Source: Chloroflexota bacterium
Lineage (GTDB): Bacteria > Chloroflexota > Dehalococcoidia > Lucifugimonadales > JADFKI01
Length of the DNA: 64,000 nucleotides
Direction: 5' to 3'
Assembly: GCA_027623195.1 (NCBI GenBank)
Contig: JAQBUT010000004.1
Coordinates: forward strand, 85,308-149,307
A program made the position numbers and the translations under genes. Each line of letters opens with the position of its first letter. The first letter of the stretch is position 1. Below the pieces are notes generated by a model that saw only the letters and a list, made by a program, of their open reading frames with translations, made no database searches and was not told where the DNA came from. Shown here piece after piece: positions 16,239 to 63,508 of this stretch.

Positions 16239-16972
16239 TTACTGGCCGCGCCTCAACGTCATGGTGGCTAGGGATATGAAAATAGCGCCAAACACGCCCA
16301 GCGCGGCGATATCTACCATGACGTCACCGAGGCCGTCGCCCTTAAGCATGATGTTCTGAATTCCATCAACTGCGTAGGTCAGTGGCAACATCTGCGCAAA
16401 GACTTCAAGAGGTGTAGGCATCTGTCGGACGGGAACTATAACGCCCAGTAAGAATATCTGTGGAATGATAATGATAGGTATGAATTGCATCACCTGGAAT
16501 TCATTTCGCGTAAAGGTGGATATGAATATGCCCAGGCTTACTCCCACAATTGAGAGCATGAACAGGAACACAATGACTTCCGCCAGGTTTCCTCGATAAC
16601 CTATCTGCAATATGAAAATGGAAAAAAGTAATTCCAAAATAGATTGAATCGCGGCGAATAACAGGAAGCCCAACATATAGCCAACCATGATATCCCCACG
16701 TCCAACAGGCGTTGTTACAGTCGCTCCAGCGTGCCCTGCGCACGCTCCCGGAGAAAGGTAACTCCCGTAAGCAAGAAGGAAAAGAACAGTACGAAGACGG
16801 CCAGTAATGCGGGGGTTATGTGGTTCAAAACGGCCCTGTGACTACTTAGCCCAAATCCCACAAGAGCCATGACAATAATCGGAGCAATTAGTATCAGGGC
16901 GAGTGAGCGGCGGTCCTTGAGGATCTGGTGAACCAGAGGCTTGGCAATTGCCAGCGTGCTAAGAGGATCCAA
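16239..16972 (-). pseudogene. ABC-2 type permease split by a 1-bp frameshift near 16717
   Basis: RERAQGTLERL-TAA; adding one base restores ...LERLxTTPVGRGDIMVGY in frame with the 16239..16688 ORF. Confidence 0.8.
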
Positions 16973-17714
16973 TCGACTTGCTCTCCCTCACAAAATACAG
17001 GAACACTTCCTCCAGCGACGCGTTTGGGTTGCCTGTGGCCGCCTTTAGCCCGGATGGACTGCCATCGGCAACTATATGTCCTTCTTGTAGGAATACAAGC
17101 CGGTCGCAATGGGCAGCATCATCCATGGTGTGGCTGGAAAGCACGAGTGTTGAGCCCTGGTCGGCGAGTTCTCGAAAATGCTGCCAGAACGAGGCTCTAA
17201 GCTCAGGGTCGAGACCCACCGTTGGTTCGTCCAGCATAAGAAGAGAAGGACTGTGTACGAGTGCAATAGCAAGGCTTACACGCTGCCTCATGCCCCCGCT
17301 AAGGCTCAGCACAGAATCCCGACGACGTTCCGTGAGTCCAACGGTTGCGATAGTGCGTTCCACGGCCTGTTGCCTGGCGCGTTTGTCGAACGAACCGTAC
17401 ATGCTTGCAAAAAAGTCGACGTTTTCCTGGACGGAAAGCTCTTGGTACACGGCGCTAAGCTGAGGCATGTAACCGATACGTTCGGCGAATTTAGTTGACG
17501 GCCTCTCGCCAAACACTTGAACAGAGCCCGAATTCGGCTTCAGCAAACCCACAATCAATTTCAGGAGCGTGGTCTTTCCTGAACCATTGGCCTCCAAGAG
17601 CCCGAATATCTGACCAGTGGGTATTTCGATTGACAGGTGGTTTAGAACCAGACGCTTTCCATAGCTGAAAATCACATCGTTGACACTGATCGCAGGGCCT
17701 TGATGGATACTCAA
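16959..17714 (-). CDS. ABC transporter ATP-binding protein (Walker A first Gly replaced by Glu)
   Basis: LLEANGSGKTT, LSGGMRQR, LMLDEPT, SSH switch. Confidence 0.85.
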   Translation of the reverse strand: MSIHQGPAISVNDVIFSYGKRLVLNHLSIEIPTGQIFGLLEANGSGKTTLLKLIVGLLKPNSGSVQVFGERPSTKFAERIGYMPQLSAVYQELSVQENVDFFASMYGSFDKRARQQAVERTIATVGLTERRRDSVLSLSGGMRQRVSLAIALVHSPSLLMLDEPTVGLDPELRASFWQHFRELADQGSTLVLSSHTMDDAAHCDRLVFLQEGHIVADGSPSGLKAATGNPNASLEEVFLYFVRESKSIGSS

Positions 17715-17758
17715 CTTTTCATATCCTTCTCGAGGGATTCGTCAGAGGCGAACGTCAT

Positions 17759-18127
17759 TTACGAGGCTTTCTCAGGCTGCTGTAGCAGTTGCAACGTATT
17801 GCCGTCGGGGTCAAGTAATGTGGCGACCCATCCGCCCCAATGCTCCTGCTCAGGTGGGCGCACGAACTCCACGCCCTTGGCTGAAAGAGTCTTGTAGGCG
17901 TTCTGGATATCCTCAGTGCCCAGATTAATCATCACCCGCTCCGGCTCCACGGTCCTGCCGCTCACATGCTCGTGAGTGCCTATGCTGAACCTCACCTCGC
18001 CCAACTGGAAGGCAACGAAGTAGGGGCGCACTGAGTGCACGGGAAAGCTCATCGTGTCTCTGTAGAACTCCGTCATCTCGTCCAACCTGTCCGTCCAGAT
18101 GATGACGCCGACAACTCCATCTATCAT
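17759..18127 (-). CDS. VOC/glyoxalase family protein
   Basis: FYRDTM, GVEF..PP...WGG...DPDGN.LQL. Confidence 0.88.
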   Translation of the reverse strand: MIDGVVGVIIWTDRLDEMTEFYRDTMSFPVHSVRPYFVAFQLGEVRFSIGTHEHVSGRTVEPERVMINLGTEDIQNAYKTLSAKGVEFVRPPEQEHWGGWVATLLDPDGNTLQLLQQPEKAS

Positions 18128-18417
18128 ATCGATTTCCTTTGCTTATTCATGAATACGATGGTTAGTCCAAACATCATGTTATTTGCCAATAGCCGGTCGG
18201 TCAATCCGGCGGTCAGCGGGGGCGGATCAACCAAGAAACACACAAATTCAACTCATAGGTTATTTCCAAATACCGGATTTGCAGTTATAATGGCACTTGG
18301 AGACATGGATGTTGATGATGACAGTTTTTGGTTGGGTCTCTAGAAAGGAGGATGTTACATTGGATAGACGTACGGGGGGGTGCCCCAGGTAGGTGTTCCC
18401 TTGGGCACCTTCTTAAC

Positions 18418-58485: not shown

Positions 58486-58849
58486 GGGGACGCGTGGTTT
58501 CGACAGGGGATTAACTTCGAAGGATTGCAGGTCGAGGCGCCATCATCACCTCGTAAAAAGGTGGCAAAAAAATTAATTGGCAACTCACAAGAGTACGCCC
58601 TAGCCGCCTAATTTAGGTGACTACATCCATGGTTTCTTCTCCTCGAGGGAGGCTAATGGGTGATATAACATCGAGGTGCTGCCCGATTTACGCCGATATT
58701 GAGGGCCTAAGACTTATCGGCTGTGGGTTTGCAGTCGCTCCCCGCTGGAAGGTGCTGCCGACTCAAGATTAAAAATTCCGGCTAAGCCTGTAGTATATCC
58801 TCGTAGTCGTTTTCTGGACGGGGAGTTCGACCCTCCCCCGTCTCCACCA
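58486..58849 (+). ncRNA. ssrA: tmRNA; tag peptide GNSQEYALAA (58579-58611)
   Basis: 5' GGGGACG..TTTCGAC; 3' T-arm GGGGAGTTCGACCCTCCCC and CGTCTCCACCA acceptor end; internal ORF ending YALAA-stop. Confidence 0.96.
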
Positions 58850-60313
58850 ACTCCAAACTTGGAGTCGGTCTGTTTCATCCGGAGAGTGCAGCGTAAGTGC
58901 TGCGCTCTCCACCCTGGCCATAGCCTTTTCGAGCAACGTGCTAAAGGCAGCGGCTGGCCGGATGGCCCCTATAAGCCTGCTGTCTATATCTACGTACACA
59001 CGCTCAATAAGCGGGCTGATTAGCTTACGCCTCTCTTCAGGCGTCGCCTCGTTCCATAGGTCCTTTACGCTTGCGAACAGATGTGCTGCTTCTTCCATTG
59101 TAGGCAATTCGACATTTTCGGTCAATCGTAGGCCGGCATCAATCTCGGTGAGTTTCGCTTTATATTCAGCATCGCTAATGCCCCCAGCCATATAGGCCCG
59201 GGACACCCTCCGTTTTCGCTCCTGCAACTCCTTAGGGTCAGGCCCTTTATGGTCGGCCACAGCTAGCTGTGCCATCTCTTCTCGCCACTCCGGACGGAGT
59301 TCTATCGAAGTCAGAATGTCTTGAATCTGTTGATCGACCTTCGGCGCCATCATGGAGCGCCCGTTAGTGACGCACTCGCGGGAGTGGCGTTCCCGGTACA
59401 TCGCCCCGCCATAGCGGTGCCGGTCGGACTGGATTCCCTTTCCGCAGTTGCCGCAGGAGATCATCCCTTGGAGCAGACCCTTGGGACCCTGGACCGTGCG
59501 TACAATGGTCCGACGTTTCCTGCGGCTCTGGACTTGTTCGTATAGCTCTTCGGAGATGATGGCCTCATGTTGTCCCAGGTACTCATCTTCATTGTATATA
59601 ACCTTACCTAGGTAGAACCGACAGTTCAGCATGTCCTTCACCGCGTGGCTGGTAAAGATTCCACCCTGGCGGGTCTTTAGGCCCTGGGCATTGAGCCAGT
59701 TGGCCAGCGAACCGGTAGACTCCCCGCCGGCTCGGCGACGGAAGACCTCAAGTAACGCTTTTGCTTCTATTTCCTCGGCCTGAGGAACTCCCCCCGGTTC
59801 CACAATCCGGTAACCAAAGGGAATCGGCCCTATAGGGAGCCCGATGGTGGCTCGATACCGCTGGGCCTTGGAAACGTGGACGGCGAGTTGATCGGAAAAG
59901 AACTCGGCCACGCCGCCTATCATTGTGAGCATCAGCTTGCCGCTCGGGATAGTGAAATCGAAATCTTCCATGACGCTTGCGAAGCCTACTTGGGCGTCAC
60001 CCAGCGACTGTAGGGCTTGGCGCTGTACACCGACGTTCCTAGACCACCTGTCAATGGTGTGGACAACCACTATGTCGAACAGCCCTGCCTTGGCATCCGT
60101 CAGCAGTGCCATGAGCTTGGGACGTCGGTCTATTCGTTCGGTGTGAGCACTTTTCCCCTCTTCGACATAGACACCTACGAGATCATACCCACGCCGCTTA
60201 CACCAGCGCTCGATGTCAGCCTTCTGGGCATCGATGGAGTACTTCTCCACCTGGGAGGGGTCGGACACCCTTATGTAAGCGACAACTCGGTTAGCTGAGG
60301 CTTTCTTCTTCAT
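58769..60313 (-). CDS. Large serine recombinase (ssrA-targeting integrase, DsiB-like)
   Basis: AYIRVS catalytic Ser, DR.SR, PFGY recombinase domain, CGNCG zinc ribbon, coiled coil; 3' end overlaps the tmRNA antisense. Confidence 0.92.
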   Translation of the reverse strand: MKKKASANRVVAYIRVSDPSQVEKYSIDAQKADIERWCKRRGYDLVGVYVEEGKSAHTERIDRRPKLMALLTDAKAGLFDIVVVHTIDRWSRNVGVQRQALQSLGDAQVGFASVMEDFDFTIPSGKLMLTMIGGVAEFFSDQLAVHVSKAQRYRATIGLPIGPIPFGYRIVEPGGVPQAEEIEAKALLEVFRRRAGGESTGSLANWLNAQGLKTRQGGIFTSHAVKDMLNCRFYLGKVIYNEDEYLGQHEAIISEELYEQVQSRRKRRTIVRTVQGPKGLLQGMISCGNCGKGIQSDRHRYGGAMYRERHSRECVTNGRSMMAPKVDQQIQDILTSIELRPEWREEMAQLAVADHKGPDPKELQERKRRVSRAYMAGGISDAEYKAKLTEIDAGLRLTENVELPTMEEAAHLFASVKDLWNEATPEERRKLISPLIERVYVDIDSRLIGAIRPAAAFSTLLEKAMARVESAALTLHSPDETDRLQVWSWWRRGRVELPVQKTTTRIYYRLSRNF

Positions 60314-60539
60314 GCGCTTGCTTCCTTCGTATCAGGATCGCCCTGCCTACCTCGGCCCAGACCTTGCATAGCTGCTCGATATCCGCCTCGGCCGGTTCGG
60401 TGGTGGCGTCACCACATATTGGCTCACCCGTTGGGGAATTAGCAAGACCCTCTTGAGCTATCTGCTCTCTGGGAAGATGCTCGTTGCCTTTCCGGTTGTT
60501 TGGCGTATTGACCTTACCATCACCCTGACTGAAGTACAT
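60291..60539 (-). CDS. Small hypothetical protein overlapping the recombinase start (possible directionality factor or regulator)
   Basis: 82 aa; C-terminal amphipathic helix LCKVWAEVGRAILIRR; overlaps the recombinase by 23 nt. Confidence 0.5.
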   Translation of the reverse strand: MYFSQGDGKVNTPNNRKGNEHLPREQIAQEGLANSPTGEPICGDATTEPAEADIEQLCKVWAEVGRAILIRRKQAHEEESLS

Positions 60540-60545
60540 ACTTCA

Positions 60546-60602
60546 AGTCTAAGGAAATGCCCGGTGCAAGAAGTGGTGGTTTTTCGGTGCATTAACGGTG
60601 CA
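60546..60602 (-). promoter_or_regulatory. Phased direct-repeat operator plus -10 box upstream of the small ORF/recombinase
   Basis: Minus strand TGCACCG x3 (60596, 60585, 60562) plus a degenerate copy (60574), spaced 11/11/12 bp; TAGACT 10 nt after the last repeat and 6 nt before the ATG. Confidence 0.6.
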
Positions 60603-60613
60603 GGGGAAAATGA

Positions 60614-62335
60614 CTAAGGGAAAGGGATATTCAGCCGGTAAATGCCTCTTCCATCGGCTCGCACCACCAGACGGTTCCATGCGGTGGAGTCGCGGAAGAC
60701 CTGAGCCAAGTTCTGACTACCGATGTCCAAGGTTTCCAGGATGTACGCCTGGCTCAGGGCAGCGCCACCGGCAATATGCTGGTTGGCGAGCAGTTCCACT
60801 ACGCGGGACTGGTTGGTAGTCAGGTCGAACCTCTCGTCCCCCAACCAGACCTCTCGATAGTCGGCGTTGTGGCGGAAAAAATCCGTCTGCGACCCAGCCA
60901 CTACCGCGTAGGAGCCAGCAATCAGCCTGAGGAGGCACCCAGGCGGTAAAGCCTGTCTGGCCAGTTCACTCCTCGCTAGGGCAATCTGATCCTCGATTAC
61001 CTTTATGATCGTGCTGGCGTGGCGCTTGACCATGCCAGTCAAACTGGCAGCTACGGTCCCGGCATCGGGATCAGAGGGATCAATGCATTCAAATAGCTCG
61101 GCGTACCGGTGAAACAACCCGGTCGCATCCAGAGGTTCTACTTCGGAGGCGAACCTGGCGTACGACAAGGCCATGGTCCGGTCCTTCGGAGAGGGCAGTT
61201 CCTGGCGGAATATGTCCACCCGGTATCGTTCCGGAGGGTCGTATTCCTCCATTTCGGCGGCGATGGTGGCAAAACGCCGGTCAATACACTGAGAGCAAAC
61301 CCCACAGTGGGATTGCATCCGGGTCTGGTAGCGCCCATGGGAGCAGGAGTTGGTTTCCTCAACCAAAGCTACCGAACCGGTATCCTGCAACACTTTCAAA
61401 GTCTCGGGTCTGGTCCGATTCCACAGTGGGTTGCTGACCTTGGGGCCGTTGGCGAACATCAGCTGGATGAAACGGTTAAACAGGCGTAGGAATTTGGGGT
61501 GGGTCGAACGGGTGGCCCGGGCCCCGATCAGCTGTCCGTTGATTGGCAAGTTCAGGCTCACCACTCCATTATCAGCCAGACAGACATCGGTGATCGCCAG
61601 GCGGTCCGCGATGACCGCTCCGAGACTAGCGAACAAGAACGCTCTGGTTCGTTGGCTGTAATCGCGGGCATCTGAGCCGGTACGGTGGATGGCGACGCTC
61701 ATTAGAGGAAATGACCAGTCTTCTCGAAACCGTTCTCGGATCAGCCTGGCCAGACTATGTTGACGGTTTCGGATGTTGAAAGCTGGCGAGTGGCTGACCA
61801 GCAGCGGACGCTTCCCCTGCTGAACCGCCGCCTCCAGCACTGCGCAGAGACTGTCCAGGCCCCCTGAAAAGAGGTAAACCCCGTCAGGGTTGCCTAATAC
61901 CGAGGTGGGGTCTAATTCCAGGTGCAACTGGCTCTGCTCGGCCATCATCTCGGTAAAGTGGAAGTCCCAGGTGTCGTCGGAAGCGAAGTTCAGTGTTTCA
62001 GCCAGTGACTCTTTTACCTGCTCTCGGTTCCAGAATTCCAGGTCACTGACTGGCAGGTGCAGGATGAAGTGGCGTTTCCATGAATCGCCATGTGCGTCGG
62101 CCTCGCCACCCCGGCTGACGCTCTGGTCGGCAGCGTAGACGTAGGAGGCGAGCCGCACCAGATCCGCAGCCCGATGTTCCACGGAGGCCAGCAATGCGCT
62201 GGATGGGCTTTGGATTCCCAGGTTCAGATTGGCTTCCGGCCCCCGGTGGTTTAGAGACTGGCGAAGAAGCACCGCTGATTCCTGGGGAGCCGGCGGGATG
62301 GTGGCCCCGTCGCAGCCGACCAGGAACTGCTTCAC
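60614..62335 (-). CDS. qatC: QatC-like QueC-family (PP-loop, Zn) enzyme with a C-terminal winged-helix-like domain
   Basis: DL..LA..VYAAD..VSR, LFSGGLDS PP-loop, SQRTRAFLF, NG..SLN.P, TRSTHP, SCS..HCGVCSQC..RR; extra ~85-aa C-terminal domain ending RGIYRLNI. Confidence 0.8.
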   Translation of the reverse strand: MKQFLVGCDGATIPPAPQESAVLLRQSLNHRGPEANLNLGIQSPSSALLASVEHRAADLVRLASYVYAADQSVSRGGEADAHGDSWKRHFILHLPVSDLEFWNREQVKESLAETLNFASDDTWDFHFTEMMAEQSQLHLELDPTSVLGNPDGVYLFSGGLDSLCAVLEAAVQQGKRPLLVSHSPAFNIRNRQHSLARLIRERFREDWSFPLMSVAIHRTGSDARDYSQRTRAFLFASLGAVIADRLAITDVCLADNGVVSLNLPINGQLIGARATRSTHPKFLRLFNRFIQLMFANGPKVSNPLWNRTRPETLKVLQDTGSVALVEETNSCSHGRYQTRMQSHCGVCSQCIDRRFATIAAEMEEYDPPERYRVDIFRQELPSPKDRTMALSYARFASEVEPLDATGLFHRYAELFECIDPSDPDAGTVAASLTGMVKRHASTIIKVIEDQIALARSELARQALPPGCLLRLIAGSYAVVAGSQTDFFRHNADYREVWLGDERFDLTTNQSRVVELLANQHIAGGAALSQAYILETLDIGSQNLAQVFRDSTAWNRLVVRADGRGIYRLNIPFP

Positions 62336-63117
62336 GCCGCCGCCATTTGCTGCCTGAGTTCGGTGCGTAGCTTGCGCAGCGCGTAGGCCATAAACCGCTG
62401 GGTTTCATCCCGGTTCACCGCCCCCTGGGACTCCCAGTTGTGGCGGGAGTACCAGCCTCCGGCGAAATCCTCGACGATTCGGGATGACTGGCGGGCATGC
62501 AGGTCAAGGGCCTCCAAGAATTCGTGACTTTGGTTCAAGTTGGATAGTCCCGCTGATGCGCCCAAGTGGTTGGACAGTTCCCGGTCTACGTAGGAATGAA
62601 GTAGCCGGGCGAAGAAGTCGCCGAAGAACCGGTGGGCCAGTCTGCCAAACTGGACCTGGGTGGAGTAAGTCCGAAAGGCGTTCTGAAGATCATCAAGGGA
62701 ACTGCCAAAGAGGCTGGGGCCTTGCTGTGCTACTGTGTCGGTCAGCGCGGTGCGCAATGCCAGGGAGCCCAGCTCGGCGAAATCTCCTCCTGAGGGACTC
62801 GTGGCAAGCTCCTCCCTCACCCGGTCAGTTACCTGGGCGATTAGCTGTAGGGAAGAGGTGTTGGAGTTGACGTTGATGCCCAGACGAGCCAGGTCGGCCA
62901 CAAAGTCCGGGCCGCGGGCTGCCCAGGCGATACGGGTCAACAACCAGAAGCTGTAGCCTAGACCCTCATCATTGGCCAGTTGACGCAGGCGGCCTTCTGC
63001 GGCGAAGACAACCGCTCCTGCCAGAGATGAAGGATCGAGGGCAGGAGCATCCAGGAGGTTGATTACCTCGGTCCAACGACGGGTCTTGGGTAGGCGTCCC
63101 AGACGCAAGTGTCCCAT
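62332..63117 (-). CDS. Hypothetical alpha-helical protein, translationally coupled partner of the QatC-like gene (QatB position)
   Basis: 261 aa; starts MGHLRLGRLPKTRRW; stop overlaps the next start (GTGA). Confidence 0.8.
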   Translation of the reverse strand: MGHLRLGRLPKTRRWTEVINLLDAPALDPSSLAGAVVFAAEGRLRQLANDEGLGYSFWLLTRIAWAARGPDFVADLARLGINVNSNTSSLQLIAQVTDRVREELATSPSGGDFAELGSLALRTALTDTVAQQGPSLFGSSLDDLQNAFRTYSTQVQFGRLAHRFFGDFFARLLHSYVDRELSNHLGASAGLSNLNQSHEFLEALDLHARQSSRIVEDFAGGWYSRHNWESQGAVNRDETQRFMAYALRKLRTELRQQMAAA

Positions 63118-63508
63118 GCTTGCTACCCCCTAATCAGTCGGCAATGCTACTAGCAAAACCGAAAGGCCGCGAGAGGTTGTTCTCCGAATGGCCCTAAGGA
63201 TAGAAGGTTTTAGCCCAGATCAACCACCTGCGCCGGAAGAGCGGCAGCGGCAGCCCCCAGCGGCTGAAGAAGGAGGAGCAGGCCCTGCAGGTGGAACAGC
63301 AAAAACTATTTTAGCATCGATCGTTCATATAAGCGATTTTTTCTTAAAAGCTCCGGCAGTGGCGGCCGTCTCAAGTCTGCAAGATTATTGCATGGGTTTC
63401 CCGAGACGTAAACCACCTTAGGGTGCCAACCAAGTGCTAAATGACGAAGGTTGTTCTCAAATGACCCACGGTATGTACAACCAGGGTTCCATTAATGGGA
63501 TAACGCCC

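Follow-up and report, generated by a model that had tools for sequence, protein, structure and literature searches.

Introduction

Pho boxes are built of 7-bp repeats with a 4-bp A/T spacer and substitute for the -35 element of the promoter (PMC4971064), and the operators of SARP regulators show a comparable direct-repeat arrangement (PMC10580950). Here we describe a promoter-like gap of this kind in a 64,000-nucleotide stretch of a Chloroflexota bacterium genome (GenBank assembly GCA_027623195.1, contig JAQBUT010000004.1, positions 85,308 to 149,307 of the forward strand), which we call the window and from whose first letter feature coordinates are counted. The gap belongs to a genomic island at the 3' end of ssrA, the gene for transfer-messenger RNA (tmRNA). 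It follows a gene that joins a QatC-like enzyme of the QueC family to a predicted winged-helix domain, and it precedes a small open reading frame (ORF) and the gene of a large serine recombinase.

Each of these components has a described relative. In ICEMlSym(R7A) the element-encoded activator FseA acts upstream of the near-silent promoter PrdfS, leading to expression of the recombination directionality factor (RDF) and to excision (PMC11963761). Verified RDFs of large serine recombinases are predicted to bind the junction of DBD2 and the coiled coil, not the coiled-coil tip (PMC12286644). Among defence systems, substrates of the QatB type need their N-terminal glycine (PMC13279940), plain QatC showed no DNA binding (PMC13376578), and the QatC reaction and its trigger are stated to be unresolved (PMC13279940). 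Islands at ssrA that carry a serine recombinase, DsiB, are found in Dehalococcoides (PMC3146451).

Results

The gap comprises 74 bp on the minus strand (60540-60613), between the stop codon of the 573-amino-acid (aa) fusion gene and the ATG, at 60539, of an 82-aa ORF. It holds four direct repeats on that strand with periods of 11, 11 and 12 bp: a distal TGCACCG 11 nt past the fusion gene stop codon (60596..60602), a second TGCACCG (60585..60591), a degenerate copy, ACCACCA, that covers the place of a -35 element (60574..60580), and a promoter-proximal TGCACCG (60562..60568). The first two spacers read TTAA and AAAA. Ten nucleotides downstream of the last repeat stands a -10-like hexamer, TAGACT (60546..60551), 6 nt before the ATG, and a leaderless start is predicted nearby. 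The initial annotation had described the copies, their spacing and the distances to TAGACT and ATG exactly as the sequence has them. It had also claimed that a properly spaced -35 element and a ribosome-binding site are missing, and in agreement with this a sigma-70 scan of the gap returned no properly spaced -35/-10 pair and the reading of the sequence ahead of the 60539 ATG no Shine-Dalgarno-like word.

Any 7-mer occurring three times was found in 77 of 20,000 dinucleotide-shuffled gaps, phase not being required, and the 3.0-Mb genome has 6 sites, the window array included, with three exact 7-mers in helical phase inside 50 bp. Taken alone, the phased triplet is thus rare and not unique in the genome. 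A pattern search for array plus -10 had the window site as its sole match there, and the array is therefore not part of a host regulon. Other phased arrays in the genome are one of TGTGCCA in many copies at a contig end (C57:1-110) and one of three CCCTGGC copies (C27:15902-15945). We take the array as meaningful because its layout is conserved in homologous loci, and this is the decisive support.

These loci were sampled as the best 80 of 555 and the best 80 of 541 related loci, together with loci that share the C-terminal domain only; a single-protein query on genome contigs gave no relatives, and an alignment-based scan found them. After removal of duplicates, of loci with less than 70 nt downstream, of those in which the domain is not C-terminal and of two 1,300-aa proteins, 44 loci remained, a count that takes in the window and two genes with broken frames. 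Over the 65 nt that follow the stop codon, the 3-mer autocorrelation of the set peaks at lags 11 (z 18.6) and 12 (z 11.5), with second-order peaks at lags 22 (z 5.6) and 23 (z 9.1), values that overstate independence since the 44 loci are related. The same region is flat in 15 loci where the enzyme core carries a nuclease tail, and in 68 loci with another tail class the autocorrelation peaks at lag 21. The repeat layout is a family trait of loci ending in the same domain of about 85 aa, and phased repeats are indeed kept directly behind the winged-helix gene, a point on which the initial annotation had staked its proposal. Decayed copies were also seen, in one of which the winged-helix domain is split by an internal stop (L015) and in another a shortened array is joined to a recombinase fragment (L165).

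The hexamer behaves similarly. The pattern nAnnnT stands exactly 6 nt before an ATG or GTG in 24 of the 44 loci (ten other spacings: 0-6 of 44), in 1 of the 15 nuclease-tail loci and ahead of 93 of 1505 long ORFs of the genome (6%). When these 24 loci are aligned on the start codon, 17 have T at position -12, which was not selected for, and the maxima of the C-rich cores, at -59, -48, -37 and -26, keep phase with the -10. No TTGACA-like -35 consensus appears in the aligned loci. By comparison across loci, the activator-type geometry and the leaderless start that had been proposed for the window are thus both supported as predictions.

Two other readings of the repeats may be judged on these data. 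Phased repeats also mark excisionase sites and replication iterons, and five other phased triplets exist in the genome; accordingly, the array might serve as recombination accessory sites or iterons, or have arisen by chance. We regard this as most improbable, as the repeats are phase-locked to the -10-like hexamer and the start codon across phyla, lie 1.7 kb from the attachment site and have no replication gene downstream of them in the window. Alternatively, the winged-helix protein may be a repressor that silences the RDF-recombinase operon and keeps the island fixed until the enzyme part releases it on a signal. OmpR-type domains are able to repress, the array spans the region where RNA polymerase binds, and the direction of control cannot be read from sequence. 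Repression is nevertheless unlikely here: neither the sigma-70 scan nor the 24 aligned loci offer a -35 to block, and the array ends about 10 nt before the -10 and in phase with it, as in pho boxes (PMC4971064) and SARP operators (PMC10580950).

The 573-aa protein encoded ahead of the gap (60614..62335, minus strand) is QatC-like from residue 1 to about 470 (PADLOC QatC, 1.7e-61; NCBIfam QatC, 220.7 bits, under the cut-off of 280). Comparison of 64 homologs with the motifs given in PMC13329287 shows the QatC motif set to be present (SGGxDS, the catalytic Asp, RxR, HP, CGxCxxCxxRR and Tyr), the invariant columns being D58, S157-S162, R229/R231, H279, C331-R354 and Y371. Full-length fusions make up about half of the 120 best homologs, down to 40% identity.

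The C-terminal domain (about residues 487-570; 60626..60877, minus strand) is predicted to be an OmpR/PhoB-type winged helix. AlphaFold2 models it with a pLDDT of 95.7 from a 31-row alignment, and of 44 only if no alignment is given, as three strands, three helices and a hairpin. In the structure search, OmpR/PhoB-family regulators fill the top 10 places with both Foldseek and VIA-align; the best VIA-align row has a Z of 7.4 (rmsd 3.1 Å, 84 residues aligned), and the best Foldseek E is 0.013. The fusion of a QueC-family enzyme to a winged helix, as first annotated, is in this way borne out by a QatC-like core and, for the tail, by a predicted fold. The domain could be placed in no family by sequence profiles searched against PDB, Pfam and NCBIfam, an ESM Atlas search gave unnamed clusters with scores below 0.9, and the fusion protein has neither the receiver domain of PhoB nor the BTAD domain of SARP, its remainder being QatC-like. 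In total, 663 protein clusters (at 50% identity) end in the same domain, and 120 of the 124 scanned clusters have no Pfam match at 1e-4. Of 401 genomes sampled from the phylum 2 had the domain, and of 391 from the class 12; two samples centred on Planctomycetota gave 15 of 251 and 9 of 201, and two other phyla gave 1 of 151 and 0 of 201. Some matches (long proteins or weak ones) were dropped, and a zero here means not found among the genomes searched, not absence. Phage and plasmid collections yielded one usable match each.

The repeat words vary among loci. In 41 loci (the 44 minus the two frame-broken genes and one weak match), similarity of the word tracks overall similarity of the domain (partial correlation 0.26, p 0.0005), and this sequence comparison shows word and domain to be co-inherited. 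The result bears on the possibility that the repeats are bound by a factor acting in trans, either an OmpR-family regulator of the host or the activator of a helper element, and that the fusion gene is incidental. The geometry would suit any OmpR-family protein, and helper-activated excisionase promoters are common (AcaCD/SetCD). We consider such a factor very unlikely, however, for the word changes with the neighbouring domain, the array disappears with the nuclease tail and takes a 21-bp period with the other tail class, and array plus -10 is single in the genome.

The gene that would be driven first is the 82-aa ORF (60291..60539, minus strand), which overlaps the recombinase start by 23 nt. 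Its homologs share the start and a conserved C-terminal helix and have a poorly conserved N-terminus; searches of Pfam and NCBIfam gave no known family. A complex model of the 82-aa protein with recombinase residues 150-495 scored 0.77, compared with 0.02 for the best of 3 controls; among solved complexes 116 of 157 reach the mark used for this score, and among mismatched pairs 2 of 215 do, counts that hold roughly because our own alignments were used. At least 74% of the contacts are shared between runs, and the partner pLDDT is at least 62. The modelled interface lies at recombinase residues 343-352 and 401-460, on either side of the coiled coil (about 355-400 by our reading of the recombinase sequence), and spares its tip. 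The 82-aa protein is therefore predicted by modelling to be an RDF that binds the recombinase at the coiled-coil junction, and this prediction strengthens the link of the promoter to excision.

A recombinase on the same strand within 4.5 kb accompanies 15 of the 17 QueC-fused loci (within 600 nt in 12 of them), mostly behind an ORF of 45-80 codons, and the adjacency to a recombinase that was first claimed for the window alone thus extends to its relatives. The homologous loci use sites in tRNA-Pro, -Asp, -Arg, -Gln, -Asn and -SeC, in ssrA and in a comM-like gene. At Planctomycetota loci with unrelated N-termini, the first gene usually encodes what we take, on reading the translations, to be an excisionase-like helix-turn-helix protein, followed by presumably primase-like ORFs. 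In satellite-like elements of that phylum (L170-L173, L177-L179, L186, L201-L207) the order is a winged-helix gene with an unrecognised N-terminus, phased repeats, a leaderless excisionase-like gene and a primase-like gene.

Upstream of the fusion gene, and overlapping its start, lies the gene of a helical protein of 261 aa (62332..63117, minus strand), a candidate QatB-like substrate. Its first two residues, M1 and G2, are invariant in 44 of 44 aligned homologs, with the consensus start MGH. No QatB profile match was obtained from PADLOC or PDB sequences, and a lead in ESM Atlas (score 0.88) falls in a cluster with 15% QatB. The 883 bp from this gene to the contig end contain no long same-strand ORF that could be QatA or QatD, neither of which was recognised by eye, no profile scan being made, upstream in 14 homologous loci; the QatC-like gene itself is followed directly by the promoter and the small ORF. 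In 7 of these 14 loci (L004, L011, L021, L025, L084, L086, L090) a conserved ORF of about 310-340 aa, with the look by eye of a tyrosine recombinase, precedes the two-gene module; it was not seen in the window.

The serine recombinase, of 514 aa (58769..60313, minus strand), has resolvase, recombinase and zinc-ribbon domains (Pfam PF00239, 1.6e-28; PF07508, 7.3e-18) and is CcrB/XisF-like by family models, with scores below the family cut-offs. It points into the 3' end of ssrA (58486..58849, plus strand; ARAGORN), which we take to be the island's left attachment site, and overlaps the tmRNA gene by 81 nt (58769-58849). Its C-terminus would differ between the integrated and the excised form, as noted for DsiB. 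On the same strand the 82-aa ORF, the gap, the 573-aa gene and the 261-aa gene lie upstream of it in this order, and the far end of the island is beyond the contig end. Extra copies of the ssrA 3' end are present in the genome at C11:14716-14743, C13:1080-1206 and C63:2045-4617. The copy that shares the contig of ssrA lies 129 kb upstream of that gene and has another serine recombinase in its vicinity (16779-18260 of the contig). One of the extra copies could be the far end of the island.

The nearest named homologs, among the matches listed, are from Dehalococcoidia. In contigs assembled from four DNA runs of two studies, the module adjoins a small ORF and a recombinase start that have diverged. 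Strain differences are dense at 60437-60498 and 60231-60263, and one lies at 60545; none of those listed, which leave out 7, falls within the repeats or the hexamer. The sensor genes and the operator seem, from these sequences, to travel as a unit ahead of exchangeable recombinase alleles. The contigs of other strains break or branch at 63214-63255, upstream of the Met-Gly gene, which is likely the outer edge of the exchangeable module. No interpretable excision joint was found in the contigs from those runs.

Discussion

We think it probable that the C-terminal domain binds the array head-to-tail, takes the place of a -35 element and starts a leaderless RDF-recombinase message that leads to excision of the island. 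The repeats, the -10-like hexamer and the ATG stand in a fixed register within an element at the ssrA 3' end. According to this model, one copy of the winged helix would occupy each 11-bp repeat, and the proximal copies would recruit RNA polymerase in the fashion of PhoB and SARP. Transcription would start from or beside the 60539 ATG and run through the small ORF into the recombinase, which the small protein, placed at the coiled-coil junction, would turn to excision. In the last and weakest step, the QatC-like enzyme and its Met-Gly partner would gate the activator on a signal, for which phage infection is one candidate; this step we hold to be possible, at somewhat less than an even chance.

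Several observations weigh against this model, in addition to the relatedness of the 44 loci. The exact 6-nt -10 spacing with a 40-codon ORF is lacking in 20 of them, and when each of the 17 QueC-fused loci is compared with 30 shuffles of its own sequence, only 6 exceed them at p<0.05. The structural match is of middling quality, with no Foldseek E below 0.001 and Z below 8. The recognition helix alone does not predict the word after correction for the remainder of the domain (partial 0.07, p 0.17, 41 loci); CAC-dominated repeats do occur in 6 of 6 loci with Gln at helix position 62, the window among them, and in 0 of 21 with Asp, a split whose threshold was set after looking and which comes down to 3 changes on the tree, 1 of them on well-supported branches. 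A recognition code between helix and repeat word is thus only suggested by the sequences. No recombinase lies within 4.5 kb in 2 of the 17 QueC-fused loci. The published virtual pulldown put 11 RDF predictions to the test, and 4 of these were false (PMC12286644). Two further points concern the sensor step: neither QatA nor QatD was seen beside the window module, and the same domain with the same promoter layout occurs with many unrelated N-termini.

The last of these observations means that coupling to defence is not needed for the repeats. It is conceivable, then, that the QatC-like enzyme and its partner are passengers, joined by a chance fusion to a generic mobile-element activator whose activity depends on expression level or oligomerisation and on no sensed signal. 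This explanation competes with the sensor step alone. Indeed, the domain ends 663 clusters, the layout persists with N-termini that are not QueC, and the enzyme core carries other tails too, a nuclease among them. On the other hand, the fusion is old and has been kept intact (in about half of the 120 best homologs, motifs invariant), the Met-Gly start of the partner never varies, and at least three different predicted DNA-binding tails, each followed by repeats of its own, are found on the core, which suggests repeated selection. We argue for selection on the coupling because the enzyme is intact, the glycine invariant and the fusion to different DNA-binding tails repeated, and we hold the passenger explanation to be somewhat doubtful.

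The other tails of the QatC-like core are of interest in themselves. The most frequent ending is a tail of about 230 aa of another class (L034-L081, L092-L126 and others), whose loci have dyad-like arrays after the stop codon with a 21-bp period and a word that varies with the tail sequence (GCTAC/GTAGC, GTGAA/TTCAC, GGACAC/GTGTCC). This suggests a second undescribed regulator-operator family. GTCAC repeats follow a third class of tail, predicted to be a winged helix (L083, L141, L145, L148, L162 and others), and a fourth class has no obvious array (L012, L016, L029, L089, L091, L095, L103). A DpnII/MboI-like nuclease tail ends 16 loci, and PF18742 is listed for some homologs.

With these tails in mind, one may tentatively, and with more doubt than conviction, view the QatB/QatC-like pair as a portable infection sensor with a swappable tail, either a nuclease (fight) or a DNA-binding domain with a private operator (flee). 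In the window, the sensor would fire a leaderless RDF-recombinase operon, and the island would excise under attack. The proteins would then represent undescribed one-component activators of mobile elements, with hypervariable sensor domains, in Chloroflexota, Planctomycetota and other phyla. We found no description of this combination in the literature covered, which excluded most subscription papers and all supplements. The main text of the Qat structure papers contains neither the word "fused" nor the word "transcription"; their supplements could list such fusions.

A fusion that turns the state of QatC into transcription from a 74-bp promoter would provide a simple reporter for the QatC reaction and its trigger. 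The loci supply matched activator-operator pairs with different words, as well as new pairs of recombinases and predicted RDFs with tRNA and ssrA targets. If the sensing step is true, immune-type sensing would be linked directly to the escape of an island.

Comparison with known systems

The window resembles PhoB and SARP operators of the PimR/AfsR type in its 7-bp direct repeats, 4-bp A/T-rich spacers, 11-bp period and replacement of the -35, and in the OmpR/PhoB-type fold predicted for its domain. It differs from them in that the protein has no receiver or BTAD domain, that the domain matches no Pfam or NCBIfam family, and that the operator, private to each element, lies right behind the stop codon of its own regulator and ahead of a predicted leaderless start. 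The FseA-PrdfS pair offers an analogy, an element-encoded activator for an RDF and excision, which in the window are proposed. However, FseA works with an inverted repeat, quorum sensing, a tyrosine integrase and a DNA-binding RDF (PMC11963761), and the window has direct repeats, a QueC-family fusion, a serine recombinase and a predicted protein-binding RDF. To the RDFs of large serine recombinases (PMC12286644) the 82-aa protein is related by its predicted binding at the DBD2-coiled-coil junction; it is set apart by a single conserved helix, a poorly conserved N-terminus and the lack of a known family.

Likeness to qatABCD and to Cap9 of type IV CBASS rests on a QueC-family enzyme with the QatC motif set (PMC13329287) and on a helical partner, encoded ahead of it, that has an N-terminal glycine (PMC13279940). 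The partner in the window, however, starts with MGH and not MGTS and has no QatB profile match, and the enzyme has a predicted DNA-binding tail, whereas for plain QatC no binding of DNA was observed (PMC13376578). With the ssrA islands of Dehalococcoides the window shares a CcrB-like serine recombinase on the reverse strand that runs into the ssrA 3' end (PMC3146451). The DsiA, RecF-like and ParB-like genes of those islands are replaced here by the small ORF, the promoter and the two-gene module, the six syntenic genes of the Dehalococcoides ssrA island module are not beside the window recombinase, and loci homologous to the window use other sites too (several tRNA genes and the comM-like gene). 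By their defining features, the window system is outside the PhoB, SARP, qatABCD and DsiB-module families. The logic of the promoter is familiar, but the family of regulators, with its private operators, and the family of predicted RDFs seem to be undescribed.

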